Below are positions 4,226 through 22,564 of a stretch of 33,619 nt of DNA, in pieces. The stretch lies in contig NW_003314282.1 of assembly GCF_000143415.4 (NCBI RefSeq), positions 1 through 33,619 on the forward strand, given 5' to 3'. Origin of the DNA: Selaginella moellendorffii. Taxonomy: Eukaryota > Plantae > Lycopodiophyta. The translations under genes were made by a program, and so were the position numbers. Below the pieces are notes generated by a model that saw only the letters and a list, made by a program, of their open reading frames with translations, made no database searches and was not told where the DNA came from. Numbering within the stretch: the stretch's first letter is position 1; every line of letters starts with the position of its first letter.

Positions 4226-4432
4226 AAATACTCATATGTACATTATTCGATAAAAGTGGATTTCATTTTCACACATGATGTTGGCTATGTAGGTATATCC
4301 TGACTTCAGTGGAAAAGCCTGGTGTCAAGAAGGTATCCTAGCAATAAACTTTATTTGAATTTTCTTATAATCCTTCTTTTATATGGATTTGTTGAAGAGT
4401 CAAAAAACCAACAATATAGACATCACTCTACT
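4226..4432 (+). pseudogene. Duplicated genomic fragment of the SF3B2 gene (end of exon 14 to part of exon 16, both introns retained)
   Basis: Colinear with 22009-22217, for example GTGGAAAAGCCTGGTGTCAAGAAGGTATCCT is identical. About 29 substitutions and one 2-nt deletion by hand alignment. Confidence 0.95.
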
Positions 4433-5399: not shown

Positions 5400-7387
5400 T
5401 CTTATAAGATTTTGATGAAATGTTGGCCATAACATTCTTAACTTGATCCATTCTGATATATTTAACTCTAAACAAAGCAAGAGGCTCCAAAAGCAAATGC
5501 TAAATTGCATCACTAACTAAAACAACCTTTAATAAAGACAATGCAATTGTTATAAGACATTATTACAATTGTTGATATGTTCAGCCCATGTGATGGCACC
5601 TCCTGAGAAGGAAAGGCAAATGCCAGAAGTAAAGTGATGGCATTTGTTGTTGGCAAAACTAGCATCTGTATAGCATGTCAATGATGCATTACCCCCTGAA
5701 TAAGTAATGCTATAGTCCATAGTGCTTTGGAGGTATCTCACAATATGCTTGGCAGCTTGCCAATGTATAGTGGTTGGTGATATGTTGTACTGACTCAAGG
5801 CAAGTTGCATATGTGATGTCGGAGCAAGTCATCAAGGCTAAATATATGAGGCAACCAATGAGATGCTGATAGGGAGTCCTAGTAAGTAAATTGCTCAACT
5901 GTGAGGTCAATAGCACCAACAACCATTGGCGTCTTGACGGGGTGGCAATCACGTATACCAAACCAATCCAGCAAGACTTTGACTTTATGTCATTGGCTAA
6001 GCATATAGCCACCAAACTTAGGATTGCGTGTGACTTCAAAGCCAAGAAAGTAGGAGACTTGGCCAAGGTCCTTCATCTGGAATTGCTAGTTGAGAGCAGC
6101 TTTTAGAGCAACAATGGCATTAGTGTCATCACCCATGATGAGCAAATCATCAACGTAGAGGGCCACAATAAGCATGCTCTCAGCATGACCATTCACATAC
6201 ACATTGTGATCGAGCATGTAATAAATTTTTTGATACCAAATACAGGAGCTCTGTTTTAGGCCATACAAAGCTTTCCCAATTGCCATATAGGGCCACCAGG
6301 GGCAACATCGTCCTCAAAACTAGGAGGTATATGCATATAGATGTCCTCTTGCAAATCCCCATTAAAAACATACAGTTTTGACATCTATATAGTGGACTTG
6401 CCATTTACAAGCAGCCGTAAGTTCAAAAAGGGTATGGATGCTGGCCATTTTTACAACTGGTGAGAATGTTTCATTGTAGTCAAGGCCATGGACTTGGCAA
6501 AAACTGCAAACAACCAACCATGCCTTATAATGTATAACCTGACCATCTTTCCCATACTTTTTGGAAAAACTCTATTTTAGATCCAAAACACGTTGTCCCA
6601 ATGGCGCTAAATCAACTGGAACATAAGTTCCATTAACCAGAATGGAAGCAACTTCTTCCACAATGGCTTCCATCCAAGATGTGAGATGGCCTCATCATAG
6701 GTTATGGGGATGCCGATGTCAACAAGGCCATAAAAGTCATCAAGCTCTGTAGCATCTGCTTCAGCATTTTCCTGGACTTTCAATGAGGGCCGACATTCCC
6801 GGGGGTGATCAAGAACTGGCATCGGATCAGGCATGCCACGACGTCGACAAAGTGGTGGAGGTGTTGGAGGCTTGTCCTCGACTAGAGGAGCATCAGCTGG
6901 TTCAAGCATGTCTAGAATTGGAGGATTCCCCAGTGGAATCTCTAGCAGCAACTCATGAATAGGATCTTGAGGTGGAGGTAAGAGTGGACCATCTCCCATA
7001 AGTGGGATCAAAGGAACAAGTTGAGTCTTAGCAATGAAAGAAAGATCTTGAAGAGCCTCTACATGCATGGGAAAGTCACTTTCGTTGAACATGATGTCTA
7101 TACTTACAAGAGCCTTGTGAGATGCAAAATCCCACAACTTGTAAGCTTTTCTCCTGATGGTGTCATCCTGTGCATATCCCACAAAGATGAATTTTTTACT
7201 TTTGGGATCTAGCTTTTTCCAAAGTTGATTAGAGGTATGTGCGTATGTTGCACAACCGAAGACCTAAAAGTGGGACACATCAAGAATAGAACCTGTCCAA
7301 AATGGGTTTTTCCATCCAAAGCAGCCGTGGCAAGGTGATTTTGGACATGCATTGTTGTGGCTATGGCCTCTTGCCAAAACATCTTAT
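5400..7387 (-). mobile_element. Ty1/copia pol, 3' part (integrase C-terminus, RT, RNase H), degenerate
   Basis: Motifs FWQEAIAT, GYAQ..KAYKLWD, GLDYNETFSPVVK, KALYGLKQS, LYVDDLLIMG, PYQHLIGCLIYL, HWQAAKHIVRYL, YTDASFA and SGGAITW occur in copia INT-RT-RH order. The 3' LTR is not found. Confidence 0.95.
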
Positions 7388-8529
7388 TGTAAGGAACCAA
7401 CTCCCCGAGGTGTCGTAGGCTAAAGGATCCCCGAAAACACAACCGAAATGATAAAGAGTTCATCGGATGGGACTGAGTCTGAGATCGAGTCCAAGACCGA
7501 CTCTAAGACCGAGTTCAAGATAGAGTCCGAGATCGAGTCCAAGGCCGACTCCAAGACAAAGTTCGAGACCGAGTTCGAGATAGAGTCCGAGATCCAAGAT
7601 CGGGTCCAAGACCGAGTCTGAGGTCGAGTCCGAAGTCGAGTCCGAAATTGGGTCCGAGGTCGAGTTCGAGATCGAGTCCGAGACTGAATCTGAAGTCGGG
7701 TCCGAGATCGAGTCTGAGATCGAGTCCGAGACTGAGTCCGAGTACTAATATAGGTTGAGGGGTGAAAGCCCAAAGCGTGTGTCTCCCAGGGGGGGGGGCC
7801 TGTAGGGGGTTCCAAAAGTATAGTAGAGATAGTGAGGTCCAGGAACCAGTCTTGAAGGAACTCTCTAGTGGTGCTTCCAAACTGACTTGAGGTTGAGACT
7901 GGGACTAAGAGGCCTTGGGTGGGAGTGAGCATGGACTTGGGTGGTGCCGAAGGGGCCACCCAAGGAAGTGCTCAAGAGCAGCTCCCACTGCCGGAAGGGA
8001 AACCGACTACGGTGCTCCCGGCTCATGTGGAGTGGTGCCCCACTTGAGTACCTTGTGGCTCATTGGTCCTCGCCCTTCCTAGGGGCTTGGGCCTTCCCTT
8101 TGGGAAGGAAATGGGGGGGTAGAAGTACCCATACCGGGCTGTTAGGCCACGGTGTTTCACCCCGGTGTCCCGAAGCAAGTGTTGCACCCAAGGCTTGGGA
8201 TTTAAAGGGTCCCATGATCAAGTCTTGTTGTACCAAGGGATGTTAGGAACCTAGAGGCTTGGTGTGTTTGGCTGCTTGTGTCTGCAGGGAGTGTAGCCGA
8301 AGCTTTAGTCTAACCCGGGGAGGGGGATTGGGAGAGATTTGGGAATCCGTGGATGGAGGGCTAACGCTCCATTGCTCGTGCAGTGAGTAGTTGAAACCAA
8401 GTAGGACCAAGTAGGAGCTGGTACAATAGGCAGGAACTTTGGCGAGGGAACTTAGCTAAAACCAAGTCGGTGTTGGTTGAATAGATGAGGTAAGCTGGCA
8501 AATTGGAAAGGAAAAATTTGTTGCTTACA
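7388..8529 (+). repeat. 5' LTR of the chromovirus (1142 bp)
   Basis: Direct repeat of 13726-14853. Starts TGTAAG, ends CTTACA, and is followed by the PBS. Confidence 0.97.
7475..7743 (+). repeat. 12-bp tandem array (GAGTCCGAGATC-like) inside the 5' LTR
   Basis: Degenerate repeats of GAGTCCGAGAYC. A counterpart lies at ~13813-14068 in the 3' LTR. Confidence 0.9.
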
Positions 8530-8532
8530 ATT

Positions 8533-8545
8533 TGGTATTAGAGCC
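8533..8545 (+). other. Primer binding site, initiator tRNA-Met
   Basis: TGGTATTAGAGCC lies 3 nt after the LTR and is one C>T change from the canonical TGGTATCAGAGCC. Confidence 0.92.
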
Positions 8546-11500
8546 TTTTTCTCAGTTCTAGCGAAGGATAGAGGCGGATTGCTAGGAGATGGCAAAGGTA
8601 GGGCGGAAACGAACTAAGGCGGAGACGAAACCTCCTCCAAAGCTGGAGCCTCCGGTTGAACAAGAGGCTATAGATGAGGAATCCTTGTATGAGGAGGACT
8701 CAAGTGAGGAAACCTCCAAACAAGAGTCTGGTGGTGAGGTTCGGTAGTCCAAGGCTCGATTGGACGTTCTAGAAGGACAATTGGCTCTACTGGAGACTCT
8801 CATATGCCCTGCTGGAGACTCTTGTACACAAGCTAAAGTGTGACGAGAAGCGGAAAAAAAGGCAAAAGATTGTAGATGCTGGCAGTGCAGAAGGTGCGAA
8901 CCCTTCGGCAGGGACTGAAGCAGAACCAAACAAGGTCGAACAGACTGAAATGGAATCAGTCTCTTAGACAGTTCCCAAGTACAAACCAAAGCCCCCACTG
9001 GTCTTTAAGGGAGTGAATGACTATAAGGTGGTGGAGGATTAGTTTTACGATATGGAGGACTACTTCCGAGCTTTGCAGTTACCGAGCTCGGAGAAGGTCC
9101 CATGTGCAAAACTATGTTTGGCAGATAATGCCAAGTTTTGGTGGAGAACAACAGAGGCCAATGAAGGACCGGTGGCCACTTGGGAAATGATGAACGTGAG
9201 GATCCGCGCGACTTATATTCCTCCAAATGCTACTCTGAATCTAAGGGATGAGCTGAGTAGGCTGAAGCAGACTGGAACCATTCAAGAGTATGTGAATGGG
9301 TTTATGGCAAAGAGGATACTTGTCATGGATATGGGTGATATAAATGTGTTCCATGCCTTTATATTAGGCTTGCAAACCTGGGCTCGCGGCGAGGTGATGC
9401 GTTGGAACCCGACTAACTACAAGGAAGCAATGCGGCTATCAAGGTGCATTTCAATGATAACCTGCAAAAGGGGAACACGATGGGGTCGGGGTCCACGTTT
9501 AGCAAAGGGGCCAAACCAAGGGGAACATATAGCAAACGGAAATTCAAGAGGAGTTTCTCTAAGAATGAGTTCTCGGGGTTCCGGAAAGGCAAATCCAGTG
9601 GCCAGCGAGCAAATACGTGGGGGAGTCAAACAAAAAGAGACAAACCCATGGATAAAAAGGTCAAGTCTGTTAGCAGCGTGGGAAACAACGTATATTACAA
9701 CTGCGGTGAAGCGGGACACTTTTCGAGGGAATGTCCCTACCCAAAGAAGGCCAAAGCCAATATAGCCATTAAGTCAGGTGAAATCCAAGCTGAGGTATGT
9801 GATTTAGTCCTTAGCTCAAAGTTACTCATTACACGAGCAACTTTGATAGAGAGTCATTCGCGACATCTATTAGCCCTTTGAGGGAAGCTTGGAGATAGCT
9901 TTGTTAAGATCCTTATTGACACGGGTGCTTTGGATAATTTTGTGGCTGCAGACATAGTCCAGCAAGCCGGACTAATGGTGCAGTAGCTGGGTGAACCAAG
10001 GACGATAGAGTTTGTTCAAGGTAGCCAAAGCACCGATGAGATACTTCGACAAGCGAGAGTCGAAGTAGGGACATGAAAAGTAGACATGGATTTCACCGTG
10101 TTGGACAAAGCGGGATTTGACGTAATCTTTGGGATGGATTGGTTCAATCGGTTTGTGGTAGCCCTACATGGACAATAGAGGAACCTTGTGGTATTGGCGA
10201 ATGCCTGGGGAGAATGATCCAGGGTGAAGGCCCAGGATCTAAAGGTAAAGCAATGTAAGGCCAAAAACTCTTGCTTAAACCTAGTGTTCACAAGAGGACA
10301 ACTCACTAAAGGAACCAAAACAACATTTTTGTGCTTATTCTCGGTGAAGAATGACAAAAAGACAGGAATAGAAGAAGTACATTTAGTGATCTAGCGAGTG
10401 TTGGACCAATTCTAGGATACCATGCCAGAGGAGCTACTGGATAGAACACAAGATTGAGCTGGTCGAGGGTGCTAAGGCAATAGTTCATCCCCCCTATCGT
10501 TTGAATGAAAAGGAACTCAAGGAAGCTCAAGTGCCAACTAGAAGAGTTGGTGGGCAAAGGGTATGTTAAGTTGAGTAAGTCACCATATGGGGCGCCGATG
10601 TTATTTGTGAAAAAGAAAGATGGATCTATGTGCATATGCATAGACTACCGGTTGCCCAACAAGTATACAAAGAAGAACAAATACCTTTTGCCAAGGATTG
10701 AGGACCTGTTCGATAAGTTGGGAAAGGCAAAATACTTCTTGAGGATTGATCTAATGTCAAGATACTACCAAATCAAGGTAGTAAAGGAAGATGTCGAGAA
10801 GACAACCTGTCGAACAAGGTATGGAAGCTTTAAGTTTTTGGTGATGCCCTTTGGGCTGTGCAATGCGTTGGCAACTTTTTTGGCACTGATGAACCACATC
10901 TTTGTACCTTATCTAGATCACTTCGTGATCGTCTATATTGATGACATCCTGATCTATAGCGAGACACTAGAGGATCATGCCGAACACTTAACGAAGGTGT
11001 TTGAGAAACTAAGGGAACACAAACTATATGCTAAAAAGAGCAAATATGACTTTGCTCAATAAGAGGTAAAGTTTCTTGGGCATGTGGTGGGCCAGGACGG
11101 GCTCAAGGTGGACCCTGAGAAGGTTCAAGCGATCCAGGAATGGGAGTGACCATCGAATGTACATGAGTTGAGGGCATTCTTGGGGCTATGCAACTACTAC
11201 TGAAAGTTTATCAAACACTATTTGAGAGTAGCTCTGCCCTTAACAGACCAAACGGGTAAAGGGAAGATGGTTTGGATAATAGAATGTGAGGCGGCATTTG
11301 TCCACCTCAAAGAGAAGTTGAGGAAGACACCCGTGTTAGTGTTATTTGACTTTGGTAAGGACTTTGAGGTAGAAACGGATGCTTTGGACTTTGCGTTGGG
11401 TGCAGTTTTGAAGCAAGACAACCATCCAGTGGCGTTTTTCTCGAAGAAGTTGGACAAAGCTCAGCGAAAGTGGCTTGCCCACGAGAAGGAATTATTTGCA

Positions 11501-12446
11501 GTGGTCAAGGCGCTCAAGGAGTGGCGACACTACCTCATGAGGCACTTCAAAGTTTACACGAATAATGTGGCAACAAAACACTTCTTATCACAACCCGACC
11601 TAAGAGGGAAACAAGGTCAGTGGGCCAATGCTTTGGCTGAGTATGATTGCGAGATTCTGTATAAATCTGGGTAGAGCAACATCGTGGCAAATGCTCTAAT
11701 CTGAAAAGCAAGCTTGAAGTTGGCAATATCTAGCGCGACAGCAACCTTTTAGGACGATGTGCGAACAACGTATGAGAACGATGGTCTAGCACAAGAAGTG
11801 TTGTGGAGGAACCAAGAGGTGCGAGAAGCTCACCAGAGAGGTGAGTTGCCAACAGAAGAGAAAACAGGTTATGCAGAACGCAATGGACTCATCTATTATA
11901 AACAGACGAGAGTGTATGTTCCAGAAGGGGAACTAAGGAAGGTAGCCTTAGAAGAGTGTCATGACAGACCTCTTGTGGGACACGGCAGAGTGCCTAAGAT
12001 GATAGGCTTACTCAAGAGGAAGTATCACTGGCCAGATATGGCTAAGGACGTCCAAGACTATGTAAAGACATGTCCAACATGTCAGCAGGTCAAAGCTGTG
12101 ACTAAGGCTAGTGGGGGCTTGTTACAAAGCATCCCAATTCCAGATCGGCCATGGAAATGTCTTAGGATGGACTTCATCACAAGACTACCCCCAAGCAAGG
12201 GGTTCGATGTGATATTCGTGGTGGTGGACCGATTTTCGAAGATGTCACATTTCATACCCACCACACCGGAAGTGGATGCAAAAGGTGTGGCGAAGCTATT
12301 CTTTGAATAAATGGTTCGAGTGCGGGGAAGGCCAGAAGAGATCATCTTAGATCGGGATAAGATTTTCACTAGTAGGTTCTGGAGAACTCTCCTGGAACAG
12401 TATCGCACTAAATTGAAATTCAGCACAGCCTATCACCTATAGACAG

Positions 12447-12493
12447 GTATTGGGTATTAAGTCAAGTTTGATGGCACTAACACTTCTTGACAG
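12447..12493 (+). other. Putative 47-nt spliceosomal intron in the integrase core
   Basis: CAG|GTATTG...CACTAAC..TTCTTGACAG|AT. Removal restores STAYH..TD.QT..VNKQLEDYL in frame. Confidence 0.8.
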
Positions 12494-12908
12494 ATAGACA
12501 AACAAAAAAGGTGAATAAGCAGTTGGAGGATTATTTGTGATGTTATGTCTCAGGAGACCAGACTGATTGGGTAAGTCATTTGGGACTTGCGAAAATGTGC
12601 TATAACAACTCACCACACTCGAGTATTGGGGTGAGTCCATGGGAAATCATCAATGGGCGAGCTATTGAAGGTCCTGTGGAACTCAGCGTGGCCAAGTATC
12701 ATGGAGAGTCACTTGTAGTGGAGGCATTCACGACGGAAAGACTCAACATTTGGAATTTAGTGAGGGATTCCTTGGAACGGACTCAACAAAGGCAAACCAA
12801 ATATGTAAACCAGAAGCACTGGGATGTAGAGTTCCAAACTAGGGAGAAAGTGTGGCTGAACACCAAGAACCTCAAGCTACCAAGTGGGATCAGCCAGAAG
12901 TTGAGCAT

Positions 12909-12949
12909 GCATGTATTCCTGTAAATGAATTGATCTTGAGTTCCTTAAG
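12909..12949 (+). other. Putative 41-nt intron (GC donor or mutated GT donor) just before the integrase GPY/F motif
   Basis: AT|GCATGT...TTCCTTAAG|C. Removal joins ORFs 12580 and 12852 into KLSIKFARPY, matching KLxxxFxGPY spacing. Confidence 0.55.
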
Positions 12950-13713
12950 CAAGTTCGCAAGGCCTTACGAGATTGAGGCACGAATCGGTAAAGTGGCTTA
13001 CCATCTCCAACTTCCTCGAGAGATGGGGAAGATGCACCCAGTGTTCCACATGAACTTACTCAAGCCGTACTTTGAGGATCTGCTTCGCAAGGACCAAGTA
13101 AAACCTTTACATGAGGTTATCCAAGGGGAAGAGGAATACAAAGTCAAGGCCATCCTCAATGCGTGCAAGAGCAAGTGACAAGGATGCGAGGTGAGAGAGT
13201 TCCATGTGAAGTGGAAAGGATTTCCACACTGCGAAGCAACATGGGAACCAGAGGAGAACCTAGCGAATGCATGAGAGTTAGTGGAGGAATTTCTGCAAGG
13301 CAAAACTCTATGTACTTATGCAAAGTTCAGTTAAAGTATCAATTTGTGAAGTTGAGCAATGGCATATGTTGGGACTCGAAGGCACGCCGAAGGTAAGCTA
13401 ATTAGCATGGGTTAGCTAAGTCGACCAGGCGTAGGGAATTACGCCTAACTCCTTGCGGGGATGTCGAATCCATAGACATATTCTACGAAGGTTGGGTTTG
13501 AGTCCCAACCCCTTAGTAAAGCAAGGCTCCGACCCCATACTAGAGCGTGGTGAGGTGAGGGGTATAGGGACACCTATATTCCATTATCATGGGCTCTTGG
13601 CCGGGGAGGCTAACTTAGGCACACCGCTAAGTGGGGGGATGCCCCCGGAGACATGGGCAACAAGTCGTAGGATTAAAAAGAGACGTTCGATGTGGGGATC
13701 GAAGTTCTTCTAT

Positions 13714-13724
13714 GGGTGGTGGAG
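13714..13724 (+). other. Polypurine tract
   Basis: GGGTGGTGGAG lies 1 nt before the 3' LTR. Confidence 0.8.
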
Positions 13725-13725
13725 T

Positions 13726-14853
13726 TGTAAGGAACCAACTCCTTGAGGTGTCTTAGGTTAAAGGATCCCCGAAAGCACAACCGAAATGATAAATAGTTCA
13801 TCGGATGGGATTGAGTCTAAAATCAAGTCCAAGACCGACTCTGAGACCGAGTTCGAGATAGAGTCCGAGATCGAGTCCAAGGCCGACCCCGAGACCGAGT
13901 TCGAGACCGAGTTTGAGATAGAGTCCGAGATCCGAGATCGGGTCCAAGACTAAGTCCGAGGTCGAGTCCGAAGTTGAGTCCAAGATCAAGTCCGAGATCA
14001 AGTCCGAGACCAAGTCTGAAGTTGGGTCCGAGATCGAGTCCAAGATCGAGTCTGAGACCAAGTCCAAGTACTAATACTGGTCGAGGGGTGAAAGCCTAAA
14101 GCGTGTGTCTCCCAGGGGGGGGGGGGGGTTCCAAAAGTATAGTAGGGATAGTGAGGTCCAGGAACTAGTCTTGAAGGAACTCTTTAGTGGTGCTTCCAAA
14201 CTGACTTGAGGTTGAGACTAGAACTGAGGGGCCTTGGGTGGGAGTGAGCATGGACTTGGGTGGTGCCGGAGGGGCCACCCAAGGAAGTGCTCAAGAGCAA
14301 CTCCCACTCCCGGAAGGGAAACCGACTGCAGTGCTCCCGGCTTATGTGGAGTGGTGCCCCACTTGAGTACCTTGCGGCTCATTGGTCCTCGCCCTTCCTA
14401 GGGGCTTGGGCCTTCCTTTCGGGATGGAAGTGGGGGGGTAGAGGTACCCATTCCAGGCCGTTAGGCCATGGTGTTTCGCCCTAGTGTCCCGAAGCAAGTG
14501 TTGCACCCAAGGCTTGGGATTTAAAGGGTCCCATGATCAAGTCTTGTTGTACCAAGGGATGTTAGGAACCTAGAAGCTTGGTGTGCTTGGTTGCTTGTGC
14601 TTGCGGGGAGTGTAGCCAAACCTTAAGTCCAGTCTAACCTGGGGAGGGGGATTAAGAGAGATTTGGGAATCCGTGGATGGAGGGTTAATGCTCTGTTGCT
14701 CGTGTAGTGAGTAACTAAAACCAAATAGGACTAAGTAGGAGCTGGTACAATAGGCGGGAACCTTGGCAAAGGAACTTAGCTAAAGCCAAGTCGGTGTTGG
14801 TCGAATAGACGAGGTAAGCTGGAAAATTAAAAAGGAAAAATTTGTGGCTTACA
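13726..14853 (+). repeat. 3' LTR of the chromovirus (1128 bp)
   Basis: Direct repeat of 7388-8529, with about 10 differences in the first ~105 nt by eye, mostly transitions. Followed by TSD CTTAT. Confidence 0.97.
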
Positions 14854-14858
14854 CTTAT

Positions 14859-16429
14859 CAAGATGTGCATCAGCTAACAAAGCGCAAGCAATATTGATAA
14901 GGGTGTGATTCTTCCTTTCTACAACACCATTTTGCTGGGGGGTGTAGTGGGCTGTGGCTTGCAGTCATATGCCTACATCACGACAGATGCCCCAAAGCTC
15001 ATTGTTGAGGTATTCACCACCACTATCAATTCGAACAGCTTTTATCTTTCGATCAAGAATATTTTCAATGTAGGCCTTGTACGTTTGAAAGGCAACAACT
15101 GCATCACTCTTACACATCAAGAAGTGGATGCATGTTCAATAGCTATAGTCATCAATGAATGTGATGAAATATCTTGCACCATTGTGGCTTGGCACATCTA
15201 TGGGGCCGCAAAGATTAAAATGGACCAAGTCCAGAAGTCCAATTGCTTGGTACTTGCTCGGCGAGAAATTCCAGCGATGATGCTTCCCTAAAATACAAGC
15301 TTCACAAAATGTAGATATCCAATAACAATATCTTAGGATTTCATCTGTTGAAGAGATTGATAATGAACATGACCAAGTCTCTTATACCAAAACTCTGCAC
15401 GAGAATCTGCCTCCACAATTTGAAAGGCCTAAACCTGGTCGGTAGTAGTAATCTCATACAAGTCCCTAATGCATGGCCCATGAAGCAACTATGTGTCAAG
15501 CATGTGAAAGTCGCTAGAGTCAACCAAAGAGACTCCCTTTGCATCAAAGACTACCACTACATTTTGATCACATATCTTGGAGACAGACATTAAGTTTCAT
15601 CACAAGATGGAGACATGCATGGCACCACCAAATGCCATGGTTCTCTCATGATCAAGTGAAAACCTAAATTGCCCGATGGATAGTGGTATTGTCACCTAAA
15701 TGAACACCATGTTTTCCAATACTCGGCTGATAATACTCAAAAAGACTCTTTTTATTGCCCATAAAATTAGTACAACTAGAGTTTAGGAGCCACATACTTG
15801 GTGCTACAATTGCCTCTGTGTTGTAGAGCTCTTCAACAGCCTCATTTGCTGTCGCAATTCCATCACCCTTAAGTAGGTTGGCTTTTGCCATCGTAGCTAA
15901 TTGCTTAACAAGCTTTGGAGCAATGCAATCTCAAGCCCAGTGACCCATCTCCAAGTAGCAAGCGCATTGATTCTTGGCAAGTCTGGGCTTGGCATGCCCA
16001 GATACCACAGAATTTTGCCCTTTTTGGGCATTTGTAGCTGTATGTGGTTTTGCCACCTTGGCATCACCAGAATCCTGTGAAACATACATAGCTTGTAGCA
16101 TTTCCTCTCTCTCACTTCGCATGGCCTCAATGTTGCGAAGACTCTTTACGACATCTGCCCAAGTCATCTCTGGTTGGAGAAGTAGGCTCTCAATTGCATT
16201 CTTCTAGCTAGCTAGCAAGGACCTATAAAGCAACAGCCTTTGCTGCTCATCCGTGAGATAGTGCTTCGCCCCAGTAGCCTCAAGTTGTGTAAAAAAGCCT
16301 AAAGTTTGGCAGTGTGAGTTTGGATACTGCCATTTTCCTCTAGCCTCAAGGAATCCATTTGTGAATGGATGTTGAAGACATCCATTTCACTCTTGGTGGC
16401 ATAGGTGTTGCTCAACCACTTCTAGAGCG
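14859..16429 (-). mobile_element. Ty1/copia middle part (gag C-terminus, zinc knuckle, protease, integrase core)
   Basis: Motifs CACYLEMGHWA*DC (knuckle), WLLNSSCTNFM (protease), WYKRLGH, CEACILGK, YFITFIDDYS, RIDSGGEY and YTPQQNGVVERKNHTL. Joins the 5400-7387 segment in frame across the TSD (ADAHLDK|MFWQEA). Confidence 0.95.
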
Positions 16430-17988
16430 TGTGAAACACAAATCCCTAAGCCCCAAAGTGGAGCCAAAAGGGTGCCATGTGGTAGTGGCTGAAGCAGAAG
16501 CTAAACAAGCGTAACATGTTTGGACTAAAAGCTCTGACTTGAAAAGTCGAGAGCAAGAGTGGAACTCCCAACGAAGGTCTCAAGGAACAAGCTCGAAGTG
16601 AGCAATAAGTGAGTCTCTAGAAAAGGGATTCAAGAGGACCAACACATAACACGTGGAAGTGTCGAGATGGACCTAAGATGGAGTCCAAAATGGAATCTGA
16701 GATGGACTTGAGATAGACCCGAGATAGAGTCTGAGATGGACCCAAGATGGAGTCCAAGATGGAGTCCGAGATGGACCCGAAATGGACCTGAGATGGAGTC
16801 CGAGATGGATCTGAGATGGAGTCCTAGATGGACATGAGATGGAGTCCGAGATGGAGTCCGAGAAGGACCCGAGATGGAGTATGAGGTCAAGACCGAGACG
16901 GAGACTAAGACCAAGACCAAGGCTAAGATTGAGATTGAGACCAAGACTAAGACTGAATCCAAGTCTGAGTTTGAGTCCGAGTCCATGTCTGAGTCTGAGT
17001 CCGAAGGTGAAAGCCCAAAGTGTTCATCTCCCAGACCTTAGAGGGTTTGGTGAGCTCCAAAAGTATAGTAGAAGGAGGACTCTAGTGGAGCCAGTTTGGC
17101 CAGGAAAGGTCAGTGTGACCAAGGAAGGCTATACTCATGTGGTGGGTGATGATAAAACCATTAAGGAGTCCAAGGCTAAAGTGAGTACGGACAAACAAAT
17201 GGGGTAGCTTGGTGAAGTTTTCAAGAGCCAACTCTAGCTCCCCTAGGAGATTGAATGGTCGATACTCCCAATCTAAATGTAGGTGGCATTACCTACTTAG
17301 ATACCTAGCATGGCTCATTGGAACCTTGCTCTAGCCATATGGCTAGGGCACCTAAAGGCAAAAAGTGGGGAGAGTACCTACGAGGCTTGCGTAGGACCAT
17401 GGTGTTTTAAAATATCGTCCCAAAGTCCCAGACTGTGGAAAAGAAAATGAGCAATCCTCTAGTGTAGTGACCAAGGATATGGTCACATGGTGAAGAAATC
17501 CTAGAAGACAGTGGGACTTAGTGGTTGTGCCTTTGGGCCTTGACCTAATGGCAGTCTTGGCAAGCATGGCTATGGTTGAAGAGGGACTTGGTAGGGATGG
17601 AAGAAGGGATATTGGGGAAGGGTGTTCTTTATGTCTCTGGGCATCCTAAGGGTGCTAAGGTGTGATCAAAGAATGACTATTCGTGGATGGATGGCCCAGG
17701 TTTTGAGAGGTGCAGGTAGAGTTGGATCACCAGTGTGGCAAAGGTGAATGGGCATGGCTTTAGCATAACAGGTTGATATATTGGTGGTAGCTTTGAGTGT
17801 CAGTCATGGGATCAGACACATGGAGCACTTAGACCAAGTGCAAAGTTTGAGTGGCATGGATGCTATTCTCGGGGCTAACAAGCCCCAAGTCCGGAATAGA
17901 ACTTATGGAAGTTGTGAGTGAAACTCCTCCAAGTGGTTGGAAGTGTGATTAAGTGACTAAAGTAGAATGGAAAATTTAGTCATTTACA
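16430..17988 (+). mobile_element. Solo LTR (1559 bp) of a family related to the chromovirus
   Basis: TGTGAA...TTTACA termini; TSD GAGCG (16425-16429) / GAGTG (17989-17993). Excision restores the copia gag frame. Shares TGAAAGCCCAAAG, CCAAAAGTATAGTAG, TGGCTCATTGG and a 12-bp array with the 7388 LTR. No internal domain. Confidence 0.88.
16662..17003 (+). repeat. 12-bp tandem array (GAGTCCGAGATG-like) in the solo LTR
   Basis: Repeated GATGGAGTCCGA and GATGGACCCGA units, grading into 6-bp GAGACT/GAGTCT units. Confidence 0.9.
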
Positions 17989-18252
17989 GAGTGTTGCTGT
18001 GATGCACTTTCGAATTAATGGTGCAGCAAAGAGAACATTCGAGGACATGCACATCACAATACTCCCTCTAGAGTTGGAATCCTGAAGGTTCCAATCATGC
18101 ACCTCAACAACACTAGAGCCTAGAGCCGGTGATGACTCTGTCCCATCTACAATCCCCAACAAACCATGAAACAAGAGATAGGATTCAAGATGGATCTTGA
18201 ATCCCTCAAACCCTTCTCCATCAAGCTTATAGATGGATGGCTTTCCTTCCAT
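17989..18252 (-). mobile_element. Ty1/copia gag N-terminus
   Basis: MEGKPSIYKLDGEGFEGFKIHLESYLLFHGLLGIVDGTE..P matches the copia gag N-terminal pattern. Continues in frame at 16424. Confidence 0.9.
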
Positions 18253-18264
18253 AATGCTATCCCA

Positions 18265-18346
18265 GCTCCAATACTATGAGATAAATTGGGATCAAAGCGC
18301 ACTGCACTAGCGGATAGAACAGGAAAACTCTAATGTCTACGTGGCA
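18265..18346 (-). other. Degenerate iMet PBS (18265-18276) and probable 5' LTR remnant of the copia
   Basis: The minus strand reads ...ATCTCA|TAGTATTGGAGC, a 9/12 match to TGGTATCAGAGC, 12 nt before the gag ATG. LTR extent is inferred only from where germin homology begins. Confidence 0.5.
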
Positions 18347-18960
18347 AGGTGTGTCATGTAACAGGCTCGACGTTGTGGAGGGTGTCTTCATCCCGCCTCA
18401 CACGCATCCTCGTGCCTCCGAGTTCATCTACATCACCCAAGGTCGCTTGTACATTGGATTCATCAACATAGCCAACAGGGTGTTTGCAAGAGTTTATGCA
18501 ATAGTAAGTTTAAACCATTTAAAGAAGTATTATGAAGAAATATTGTCTATATCTTAGAGTACAAAACTATGGATAAGCTCTTGGATGAAACCCTTAGAGA
18601 GATTCTTCATGATAAACTACTTAATTGCACAAATAGAGTGACCAACTAGATGAAGGATAAAGTCTAGAAAAATTTTACAAAGTGACATCAAACTTTGTTT
18701 ACTCCAAGGGTGAGGTGATAATCTTCCCAAGGGGTCTCATCCACTGGCAGTTCAACATAGGAGAGGGTCCAGTGTCAGCTTTTGCAGTGCTAAACAGCAA
18801 GAAGCCCGAGTTTCAGACCATAGCTCCATCCATGTTGGGGAGTGGTGTCATGGAAGAAGTTCTTCAAAAGGCATTTTGGCTGGATGCTTGGACTGTGAAC
18901 AGGCTTGTCGAAGAGTTTGTTCCCATCGCTGAATTTATCCGAGGCACGGTAAGGTTGTGA
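18345..18960 (+). pseudogene. Germin-like protein (cupin) pseudogene, 5'-truncated and interrupted by a 200-bp insertion
   Basis: Germin boxes PPHTHPRASE and GEVIIFPRGLIHWQFNIG, and C-terminal VLQKAF. The N-terminus is missing. The insert at 18497-18696 carries in-frame stops. Confidence 0.92.
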
Positions 18961-19505: not shown

Positions 19506-19716
19506 CTCCTCAAAAACCCATATTAAAACAAAGAGAATGCATAAGAGTGAAATCAAATGTGTTTTCTATCTTGCTATGAGTGTAGCGGCTTAGCCTCATT
19601 AAAAAATATATATAAAATCCATACTTTTCTTTTTCTTATATTAAACAGAGAATGTATACTAGTGAAATGAAATGTGGAAGCAACTTGATATTAGGGCTTG
19701 TTTGAATGAGGGAGAA

Positions 19717-22518
19717 ATGGCGATGGTTGCTTCTCCGTGCGGTGCGGATGCGAGCAGCACCAAGCGCGCCAGGGAGGCTGAGAAACGAAGGCGCAGAAGG
19801 ATGCGGAAGAAGGAAAACCCTGCTGCGCCTCGTGATTCTGGCGGCGAGAGCAAGGTAGTCCACCCTCTTTTTTGTGCTATTGGAATTGCTTGCTTTGCTC
19901 TAGGTGAATGCCGGAAGCGCGGAGATCGAGTACGTTCCAGACAAATCTCCTCTCGACGGCGATGGATTGGTCGAGTTCCAGCGGATTTTTGACAAGTTCT
20001 CGGGCCTGGAATCGTCGAAAAAGGTAGAGCGCGCTTTGCTTGAGAGTCATGCTCATGCTTGGCCTGTGTAGAAGCCTAAGGAAGCCGTGAAGACGGAGAA
20101 AATGCAAATGAGCTCGTCCGAAGACGAAGATGACAAGCCCGACGTGAGAGTGAAAGAGGTGGTGCTGTCCAACAAGAAGAAAAAGGTGGACAAGAAGTTT
20201 TTGTTTGATCACTGCAATTTCCGTGCCTGTCTTCTTTCCTTTCTTCAGATGAAACGAAGAATGACGGTTGCAGATCTTAAGGACTACTGTGGCAAACCGG
20301 ATGTTGTCGAGGTATTCGATGCTAGGCCTAGAGATGAAAAAATTTCTTCAATAGTGGCTCTCCACAGGTGTGGGACGCTACAGCTGCGGATCCCCGGCTT
20401 CTCGTTTTTTTGAAGGCTTATCGCAACACCGTGCCTGTACCGAGGCATTGGTGTCAAAAGCGGAAATTTCTACAGGTTTGTAGTGTTGTTTCGACATTCT
20501 TCTTGTTTCTTTTCCCTACTGGTCATGCTTGCATCGTTCGCGATTGTTTGTATGAACGGCTTGCATCTTAAATTGCAGTGCCTGGTGCTTGCAGGATGCC
20601 GGAGGACGGGCCATCCAAAAGGGAGGCAGTGATTTACAGGGTACGAATTTCTAGAAGCTGCATTTTTCGTGTTGCATTGTATGAGATGGTCTGCATTTCT
20701 TCTAAATCATACAGTAGCTACGTGTTTTTTCTCGGCTCTGAAATGATGCATGTCATTGCAGGGAAAGCGTGGTGTCGAAAAGTTGCCATTTCATTTACCG
20801 GAGTTCATAGCTTCGACGGGAATTCAAAAAATCAGACAGGTGCCAGGATATGTCTCTAGCGACTCGACTAATCCTTTTTCTCTGTTTTTCTCAGGCCTAC
20901 ATTGACAAGGAAAATACAAAAAAGTCGAAACAAGTTCAAAGATCTCGCATGCAACCAAAAGTGGGAAAAATGAGCATCGATTATCAGGTAATCATGCTGA
21001 CACCCTGGTGCTTGACTTAACTTGTTTCTTCTTGTCTCGCAGATCCTGCATGACGCATTTTTCAAGTACCAAACTAAACCCAAGCTGACATCCCTCGGGG
21101 ATTTGTATCACGAAGGAAAAGAATTCGAGGTGAGAGTGCTTTAGGTACAGGTAGTCGTCCTGAAAATGGTTTCGCAGATAAAACTAAGAAACATGAGACC
21201 CGGGTATCTCTCTCGTGAGTTGCGGAGTGCACTTGGCATGGACGACGGTGCTCCACCTCCATGGCTTTTCAACATGCAGGTACGTAGTCACTACACTACA
21301 TTCTATAGACTAAGGAAAGCGGACTGATTGCAGAGATACGGGCCACCGCCTTCTTATCCTCAGCTGAGGATTCCTGGATTGAACGCACCTATTCCCGTCG
21401 GTGCGTCCTTCGGTTATCATCCTGGAGGCTGGGGTAGGGCTCCTGTCGACGAGGTAAGCCAGCCAATGCTCCAAGTACGCCGAAGTATGGAAGTTTTTGT
21501 AGTATGGAAGGCCTCTATATGGAGATTTATTCGGTGCACAACGGCAGGAACTAGTGCATTACGAGGTGAGGGTTGTCCTTATTCCGTTAAAAGGCCGTGT
21601 AAATGGCTGTTGATTTCTACTTAAATGTAGGAGGAGCCTGTCGATCGCTTTAATCACTGGGGTGAGTTGGAAGATGAGGACGAAGAAGAAGAAGAGGGAC
21701 CGGAAGAAGAGCAACGGGAAGAGGTGGAGGCCGCTCCTGTTGAAGAAGCAAGCGTTGCATCTTTGGAGTACATTCTATTTACTTTACGAATCCTAGGTTC
21801 GTTTTCTAATCCTTGTAATGTCTCCAGGACTCCAGCCGGTGATGAAACTCCCAACGCGATCAACCTTCGAAAGTCAAAACGTAGTGAACCAGATATCAGG
21901 CTATATCAGGTTGTCATCGACCGTCCTATCTATGTATGCTTACTCTTTTGTCCTTTTACAGGTTTTAGAGGAAAAGAAAGAAAGTGCTCGAGCAGGAATC
22001 CTTCTGGGAAATACCCATACGTACGTTGTTCGATAAAAGTTTGGATTTCATTTTCATCCATGATGCTGTCTGTGTAGGTATGCCCTGCCTTCGGTGGAAA
22101 AGCCTGGTGTCAAGAAGGTATCCTGGCAGTAAACTTTGTTTGAATTTTCTTACGGTTCTTCTTTTAGGTGGATTTGCTGAAGAGTCAAAGAACCGGCAAC
22201 GTGGACATCACTCTACTGCCCGAGGAACTCGAAAAACTGGATGAAACTGCCCTGGCTGCAAGGTTTGCGAACATTTTTCTAGTTCATTCTCTTCATTCAC
22301 TTTTTGTTTTGATTTCTTTACAGGTTTGAGGAGGCCAGAAAAGAGAAGCAGCAGGAAACCGTAACGGAAGACTTCAGCGACATGGTTGCGTCGGTAAGTG
22401 AAAGGAAGTTCCATGTTTATTGCAAATTGTCTAAGCTTGTCCCATTCAGGCCGAAAAGAAACGAAAGCGCAAAGCCGAGAAAGATTCTCGCGCAAAGAAA
22501 GTCGACTTCAAGTTTTGA
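19717..22518 (+). CDS. SF3B2: Splicing factor 3B subunit 2 (SAP145/Cus1; DUF382 + PSP), 18 exons, 545 aa
   Basis: Exons: 19717-19854, 19904-20023, 20072-20185, 20249-20311, 20368-20475, 20762-20839, 20895-20987, 21043-21129, 21178-21279, 21334-21453, 21503-21565, 21631-21767, 21828-21909, 21962-22020, 22078-22117, 22168-22262, 22324-22393, 22450-22518. All introns are GT-AG and the frame is open. Hallmarks: NTVPVPRHWCQKRKFLQGKRG, LHDAFFKYQTKP, PPPWLFNMQRYGPPPSYP, EDFSDMVA and terminal DFKF. Confidence 0.97.
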
Positions 22519-22564
22519 TGGAAAGAAAGCTCGCTCATTTTCTTGGCAGCTGCATTGAAAGTCT

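Follow-up and report, generated by a model that had tools for sequence, protein, structure and literature searches.

A high-copy chromovirus family of Selaginella moellendorffii with an integrase probably expressed from spliced RNA

The stretch of DNA analysed here (the window) comprises 33,619 nucleotides (nt) of the genome of Selaginella moellendorffii (assembly GCF_000143415.4, contig NW_003314282.1, positions 1 to 33,619 of the forward strand) and carries a complete Ty3/gypsy long terminal repeat (LTR) retrotransposon with a chromodomain at positions 7388-14853 (7,466 nt), flanked by a CTTAT target-site duplication. We propose, with a probability of about 0.7, that this element belongs to a high-copy chromovirus family whose integrase is split in nearly all copies by one short intron, for which one spliced RNA read was found, and by a second, predicted intron, with complete integrase made from spliced RNA only; copying likely proceeds from the unspliced RNA.

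Interruptions of the integrase frame

The original prediction, made from the sequence alone, described two inserts of host-intron size with splice-like ends that break the integrase frame, and for the first insert this description was borne out. Insert 1 (12447-12493; 47 nt, GT..AG, with CTAAC 12 nt upstream of the AG) interrupts the HPQT/DGQTER motif of the integrase, upstream of the third catalytic residue, which we take to be the glutamate of the DGQTER motif behind the insert. If the insert is kept, the frame ends at a stop at 12458-12460. All six uninterrupted homologues compared by tblastn align up to 12436 and resume in another frame; removal of 12447-12493 rejoins the two halves of the motif, and the rejoined motif aligns, via a homologue, with the integrase structures of Ty3 and foamy virus. 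The insert has 38% GC and 34% T, compared with 46% GC and 23% T in the coding region, and its GT..AG ends, host-like size and host-like composition are those of a spliceosomal intron. For comparison of size, nine introns were read in the adjoining host gene, which is SF3B2-like (DUF382, PSP); they measure 48-63 nt with GT..AG ends, and represent about half of the introns visible in this gene, one longer intron of roughly 285 nt having been left out. The combined pattern of donor, branch point and acceptor is not enriched in the window (5 matches, 10.4 expected) and was not used as support.

The motif is reached by 187 of the 349 homologous proteins retrieved. Of the 187, 184 are colinear through the site by pattern and a further one on visual inspection; of the other two, one stops at the site and the second diverges. 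The remaining 162 lack the start of the motif, and interrupted relatives would often be missing from protein sets. To judge by these proteins, the uninterrupted motif is the ancestral state, since 185 of the 187 are colinear through the site. The protein searches returned no member of the family itself, the best identities being near 50-55% over most of the query, and a search with exon 2 alone against proteins of 66-212 residues gave no match. Metagenomes were screened by pattern for an intron at this codon, and none of the 22 loci obtained encodes an integrase; no relative of the element was found in viral contigs.

The insert was then followed through other copies of the family in a DNA run, X1, with 42,969 contigs on the internal region of the element, and in X5, from another sample and another study, with 986 contigs; X1 may be the sample from which the window originates, and depth is not equivalent to copy number. 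Among the best-supported variants listed for the internal region in X1 and X5, none was a skip, a gap or a loose end at insert 1. On the stretch 12351-13040, a skip of 47 nt is absent among 5,722 X1 contigs, as seen in the complete tables of joints (14 rows) and of indels (2 rows), and these same tables do list variants carried by a single contig, with depths of 110-480. The X1 depth over the bins of insert 1 (718k and 912k) is not below that of other bins, and the X5 depth is even (354 over the insert 1 bin, compared with 160-838). X1 records 1-3 cross insert 1 without a gap while differing from the window copy by 26-44 letters, as does a contig of X6 (range 26-57 in all). The inserts are therefore common to copies of the family, as expected under the original prediction, and an origin of the inserts in the window copy after its integration is refuted: some lesions are indeed private to this copy, among them the loss of intron 2 at both of its ends, but both inserts occur in contigs of other copies, and the published consensus of the family breaks at the same places (PMC3350952). 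The stops at 12440 and 12538 are likewise private to the window copy, as 93% and 85% of the X1 depth, respectively, show another letter there; exon 2 is therefore open in most copies.

RNA reads on the element were few: in about 12% of each of three RNA runs, 11 reads were found in X21, none in X22, and none in X23 on 12351-13040, and the zero counts of X22 and X23 constitute no test of splicing. Four X21 reads fall on 12351-13040. One of them covers 12401-12441, shows zero depth over 12443-12488 and resumes over 12489-12597, that is, 41 + 109 = 150 nt with a skip of 47 nt. Both sides belong to one read, with one start, 16 other differences and variant letters on each side, and it derives from another copy than that in the window. 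The skip was inferred from depth bins (the joint listing requires at least three reads), and the gap had been predicted by bin arithmetic on coarser data before the narrow stretch was viewed. It corresponds to exact removal of 12447-12493, because GACAG stands both at 12442-12446 (exon end) and at 12489-12493 (intron end). This is the sole raw RNA read that spans the insert (1/1); the prediction that the integrase is made from spliced RNA is thus upheld for insert 1 to the extent of one read (n=1), with no further reads spanning the site. Insert 1 is retained in a 614-nt contig of X6 that extends into the donor of insert 2, which indicates that an unspliced form is present as well, or else contaminating DNA. 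A further X21 read pair lies in opposite orientation on exon 2 (12568-12816), which may represent antisense transcription or an unstranded library.

The 5-nt repeat around intron 1 would be expected if the intron had been inserted with duplication of a proto-splice site, or if it had come from microhomology-based repair. The same repeat might point to filler DNA, introduced by repair in the founder and never spliced, with the gapped read as a template-switch artefact or the product of a rare insert-less copy; that there is a single gapped read, and that donor-branch-acceptor patterns are common by chance, would agree with this. We consider it improbable, however, since GT..AG ends on the sense strand result from only one of the six cut positions that are equivalent under the repeat, and the opposite strand offers no canonical pair at any of them, both inserts match host introns in size and T-richness, and none of the 5,722 X1 contigs has the skip.

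The second insert is real and breaks the frame, as originally described: in tblastn, the frame of the six homologues shifts between 12903 and 12945-12963, and the match to the SH3 profile resumes at position 24 of 64 immediately behind it. Its ends had been misplaced, and its 3n+2 length is a property of the window copy only. The borders 12909-12949 (GC..AG, 41 nt, 3n+2) were rejected, as contigs of other copies (32 and 23) show 10-11 additional letters with a GT donor after 12906, and 94% of X1 depth has a YAG acceptor whose last letter is 12952. From these contigs, the family intron 2 is read as a GT..AG intron of about 51-52 nt, that is, of host-like size. The window copy has lost both splice sites, the donor through a short deletion. 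Two X6 contigs end, unspliced, inside insert 2.

A strong donor had also been proposed at the border of gag and protease. The motif (GAG/GTATGT) is present at 9795, and by itself it is at chance level (2 in the window, 1.92 expected) and was not used as support. The stretch 9795-9849 (55 nt, 36% GC) ends in TAG and is among the top 5% of windows for T. When it is kept, the frame reads through from gag to protease; when it is removed, a stop follows 7 codons past the junction. This candidate intron is dispensable for Pol, because its retention leaves gag and protease in one frame; neither X21 nor X22 gave RNA depth at 9751-9924. All three intron candidates are T-rich in comparison with the coding mean of 23% (insert 1, 34%; insert 2, 37%; gag candidate, 34.5%). 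The 3' untranslated region (UTR), described earlier as extensively self-complementary, folds modestly better than its shuffles (z about -2.7), and the description was overstated: the folding z is -2.66 against shuffles, with 1 of 100 shuffles as good, and -2.83 in a comparison in which six control stretches reach +0.4 to -2.1; the folding is via short hairpins, and no inverted repeat of at least 25 nt is present in the 3' UTR.

Family identity and proposed expression

The element is likely SM1-Galahad, a chromovirus of S. moellendorffii related to Galadriel, whose consensus was derived from hundreds of copies that are about 95% alike (PMC3350952); the match was made by features and not by sequence, and the Galadriel placement is that of the same paper. 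SM1-Galahad is described as an element of 7.5 kb with LTRs of 1076/1146 bp that are 90.2% alike, G tracts of 11-25 and a Met primer site; the element in the window has 7466 nt, LTRs of 1142/1128 nt that are 91% alike, and G runs of 10 and 14. Three open reading frames (ORFs) were published for it (PMC3350952): one of 3885 bp that ends in the core integrase without chromodomain, one of 316 bp, and one of 309 bp with a group I chromodomain. The corresponding frames in the window are 3872 nt (ATG 8589 to the stop at 12458-12460, with private indels), 330 nt (ATG 12595 to the stop at 12922-12924, the start of intron 2 being damaged in the window copy) and 309 nt (13023-13331). In contrast to the published description, the gaps between the ORFs are read here as introns, one of them with a spliced read; the words 'intron' and 'splic' occur 0 times in PMC3350952. 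If the match is right, the breaks are family-wide on independent evidence, because the consensus breaks at the same places. The sister family, SM2-Galahad, is young and intact; it counts hundreds of copies, its LTRs are 99.7% identical, and its single ORF of 4731 bp includes a chromodomain (PMC3350952). As neither the homologues nor SM2-Galahad with its unbroken ORF have the introns, these were likely gained on the SM1 line, to judge from the sequences compared.

The window copy has its own target-site duplication together with the family-wide inserts, from which we deduce that it was reverse-transcribed from unspliced RNA, in agreement with the original view of unspliced RNA as the copied template. 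The unspliced RNA would encode Gag, protease, reverse transcriptase and RNase H, and an integrase truncated ahead of the third catalytic residue, without SH3 domain or chromodomain. A minority of transcripts would lose introns 1 and 2 and provide active integrase for particles in which unspliced RNA is packaged, such that splicing would set the dose of integrase; the third, candidate intron at the gag/protease border would yield a Gag-only message. As a best guess, by analogy, spliced RNA might be kept out of replication through separate RNA pools for translation and packaging, as known for BARE1 of barley (PMC3735527). In a more elaborate form, which is tentative and which we hold to be rather doubtful, introns that arose de novo would constitute a three-way switch: the unspliced RNA would serve as genome and as message for an integrase-dead Gag-Pol, the gag splice would give Gag, and the two integrase splices would give the sole active enzyme, under an exclusion of spliced RNA strict enough that hundreds of copies keep their introns.

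Several observations weigh against splicing-dependent expression of the integrase. The spliced read is a single one (n=1), and its sample differs from that of the DNA run. The 5-nt direct repeat at its junction permits a template switch of reverse transcriptase or a rare intron-less genomic copy as its source; no RNA read covers intron 2 or the 9795 candidate. X6 is presumed to be RNA but could represent DNA, and X21 pairs occur in both orientations, so that this library may be unstranded. Furthermore, any packaged spliced RNA would be expected to leave intron-less, self-sufficient copies, none of which were seen, so that a sorting step is needed; contigs also drop rare variants. Finally, the describers of SM1-Galahad found no intact copy (PMC3350952).

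The last point also bears on an alternative that we regard as unlikely, namely that the inserts crippled the integrase in the founder, and that elements of the SM1 type spread on integrase borrowed from an intron-less relative, e.g. SM2-Galahad, with any splicing incidental. SM2-Galahad, the suggested donor, has an unbroken ORF, nearly identical LTRs and hundreds of copies (PMC3350952), parasitism of BARE2 on BARE1 is a known precedent (PMC3735527), and expression of the element in the three RNA runs was very low. Against borrowing stand two independent inserts of host-intron size with GT..AG ends, the removal of which restores colinearity in both cases, and the stops in exon 2 are private to the window copy. 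In addition, the SH3 domain and chromodomain behind the inserts are still well recognised (34% and 32% identity to a moss-type homologue, compared with 43% before the insert), and the LTRs of SM1- and SM2-Galahad differ in length (PMC3350952). Splicing-dependent expression from the element's own integrase gene thus remains the reading that we prefer.

Element anatomy and genomic context

The features of the element are summarized in Table 1. The domain order of gag, protease, reverse transcriptase, RNase H and integrase with a C-terminal chromodomain is that of gypsy elements (Pfam, tblastn), and TG..CA LTRs, target-site duplication, primer site and polypurine tract are all present, as in the structural definition of chromoviruses. 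The primer-binding site is presumably of the initiator-Met tRNA type, in agreement with the description of SM1-Galahad (PMC3350952). The 5' and 3' LTRs are 91% identical with 101 mismatches, 90 of which are transitions, so the window copy is old, as dated by this comparison; it is also dead, as originally stated. Its gag is broken by stops and frameshifts, and both splice sites of its intron 2 are lost.

Table 1. Predicted features of the chromovirus at 7388-14853 and its target-site duplication
Feature	Positions	Strand	Evidence or remarks
Left target-site duplication, CTTAT	7383-7387	+	Identical 5 nt at 14854-14858
5' LTR, 1142 nt, TG..CA, 12-nt tandem array and G run of 10	7388-8529	+
Primer-binding site, presumed initiator-Met tRNA type	8533-8544	+	Sequence directly 3' of 5' LTR
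gag	8589-9794	+	Retrotrans_gag 9109-9375, zinc knuckle 9696-9737 (Pfam)
Candidate facultative intron, gag/protease border, 55 nt, GT..TAG	9795-9849	+	Composition
Aspartic protease, sharing the frame of the gag 3' end	9882-10200	+	Weak Pfam matches; tblastn
Reverse transcriptase	10505-11059	+	RVT_1, E 6.7e-26
RNase H	11204-11671	+	RT_RNaseH, E 4.7e-29
Integrase exon 1: H2C2 zinc domain and core to HPQT motif (first two catalytic aspartates)	11753-12446	+	Pfam, tblastn
Intron 1, 47 nt, GT..AG, in-frame stop 12458-12460 if kept	12447-12493	+	Family-wide in DNA; one RNA read skips it
Integrase exon 2: remainder of core with third catalytic position, linker, first third of SH3	12494-12904	+
Remnant of predicted intron 2 (about 51-52 nt in other copies)	12905-12952	+
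Exon 3: remainder of SH3 and chromodomain	12953-13334	+	SH3_Tf2-1, E 1e-13; Chromo, E 2.5e-10; includes 309-nt frame 13023-13331
3' UTR, several short hairpins, polypurine tract at its end	13335-13725	+
3' LTR, 1128 nt, TG..CA, G run of 14	13726-14853	+
Right target-site duplication, CTTAT	14854-14858	+

Within each LTR, a degenerate tandem array of 12-nt units spans about 300 nt (7457-7765 and 13807-14070), and the G run comes after it. The element is nested in a decayed copia-type element on the minus strand, of which integrase, reverse transcriptase and RNase H-like pieces were recognised by eye in ORF lists (5550-7263 and 14878-16203). A further LTR-like piece at 16640-18000 carries a comparable tandem array and matches the LTR of the element over short stretches; it is possibly a solo LTR of a related family.

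The host gene mentioned above, for an SF3B2-like splicing factor, lies at 19700-22520 and has about 17 introns, mostly of 48-64 nt. A fragment of it (stretches of 176 nt and 32 nt, with exons and introns) is repeated 17.8 kb upstream (4226-4432, compared with 22009-22217; 86-88% identity), a duplication of the gene fragment at the DNA level. Pieces of a germin-like (cupin) gene (Cupin_1), interrupted and apparently broken, are found at 18340-18900; together with the introns of the SF3B2-like gene, they suggest a plant host whose introns are very short. A cluster of direct and inverted repeats of 30-115 nt is found in a GC-rich island at 970-1455.

Comparison with known splicing-dependent elements

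LTR elements are expected to lose introns in each round of copying, and plant reviews name Ogre and EVADE as exceptions (PMC12786077). No report of introns in a gypsy integrase was found in the literature, with subscription journals and repeat databases lying outside the search; PMC13547354 and PMC2864245 added nothing on the subject. For splicing-dependent integrase as such, Ogre is a precedent (PMC6317226).

Small introns in the integrase core of a high-copy family would provide a built-in marker that tells messenger from genome for each RNA or cDNA molecule, and the sorting of retroelement RNA between translation and packaging would therefore be directly countable. The family would also represent a dated instance of a retroelement that acquired introns, beside an intron-less sister family. 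The introns would explain the description of the family as a truncated integrase with a detached chromodomain ORF, and annotation tools that assume the absence of introns will label such families as dead.

Penelope-like elements also keep spliceosomal introns through retrotransposition; they are, however, not LTR elements, have no DDE integrase, and their characterised introns are mostly located in the 5' leader (PMC8557442). In foamy viruses, as proposed here, Pol from a spliced message must join particles with unspliced genomes, but there a separate Pol is made from a subgenomic RNA and no small introns are described inside pol (PMC7828637). The Ty1/copia elements BARE1 (barley) and EVADE (Arabidopsis) have a facultative intron at the gag/protease border, the removal of which gives a Gag-only RNA (PMC3735527, PMC5580714), and the candidate at 9795 would act in the same way; in BARE1 and EVADE, however, the unspliced RNA encodes the whole polyprotein, and splicing removes the coding for enzymes rather than creating it.

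In Ogre elements (Ty3/gypsy, Tat clade, legumes), an intron is kept in all copies, and translation of the enzymes, including integrase, requires its removal, which takes place in a subset of transcripts (PMC6317226, PMC12786077). Expression of integrase would thus depend on splicing of an intron retained in the copies in both systems. They differ in that two introns of about 50 nt cut the catalytic core and the SH3 domain in the element described here, where reverse transcriptase and RNase H need no splicing, and in that Ogre is not a chromovirus whereas the present element has a chromodomain. The element is likely, therefore, a member of a known family with an unrecognised gene structure, a variant of splicing-dependent Pol expression.

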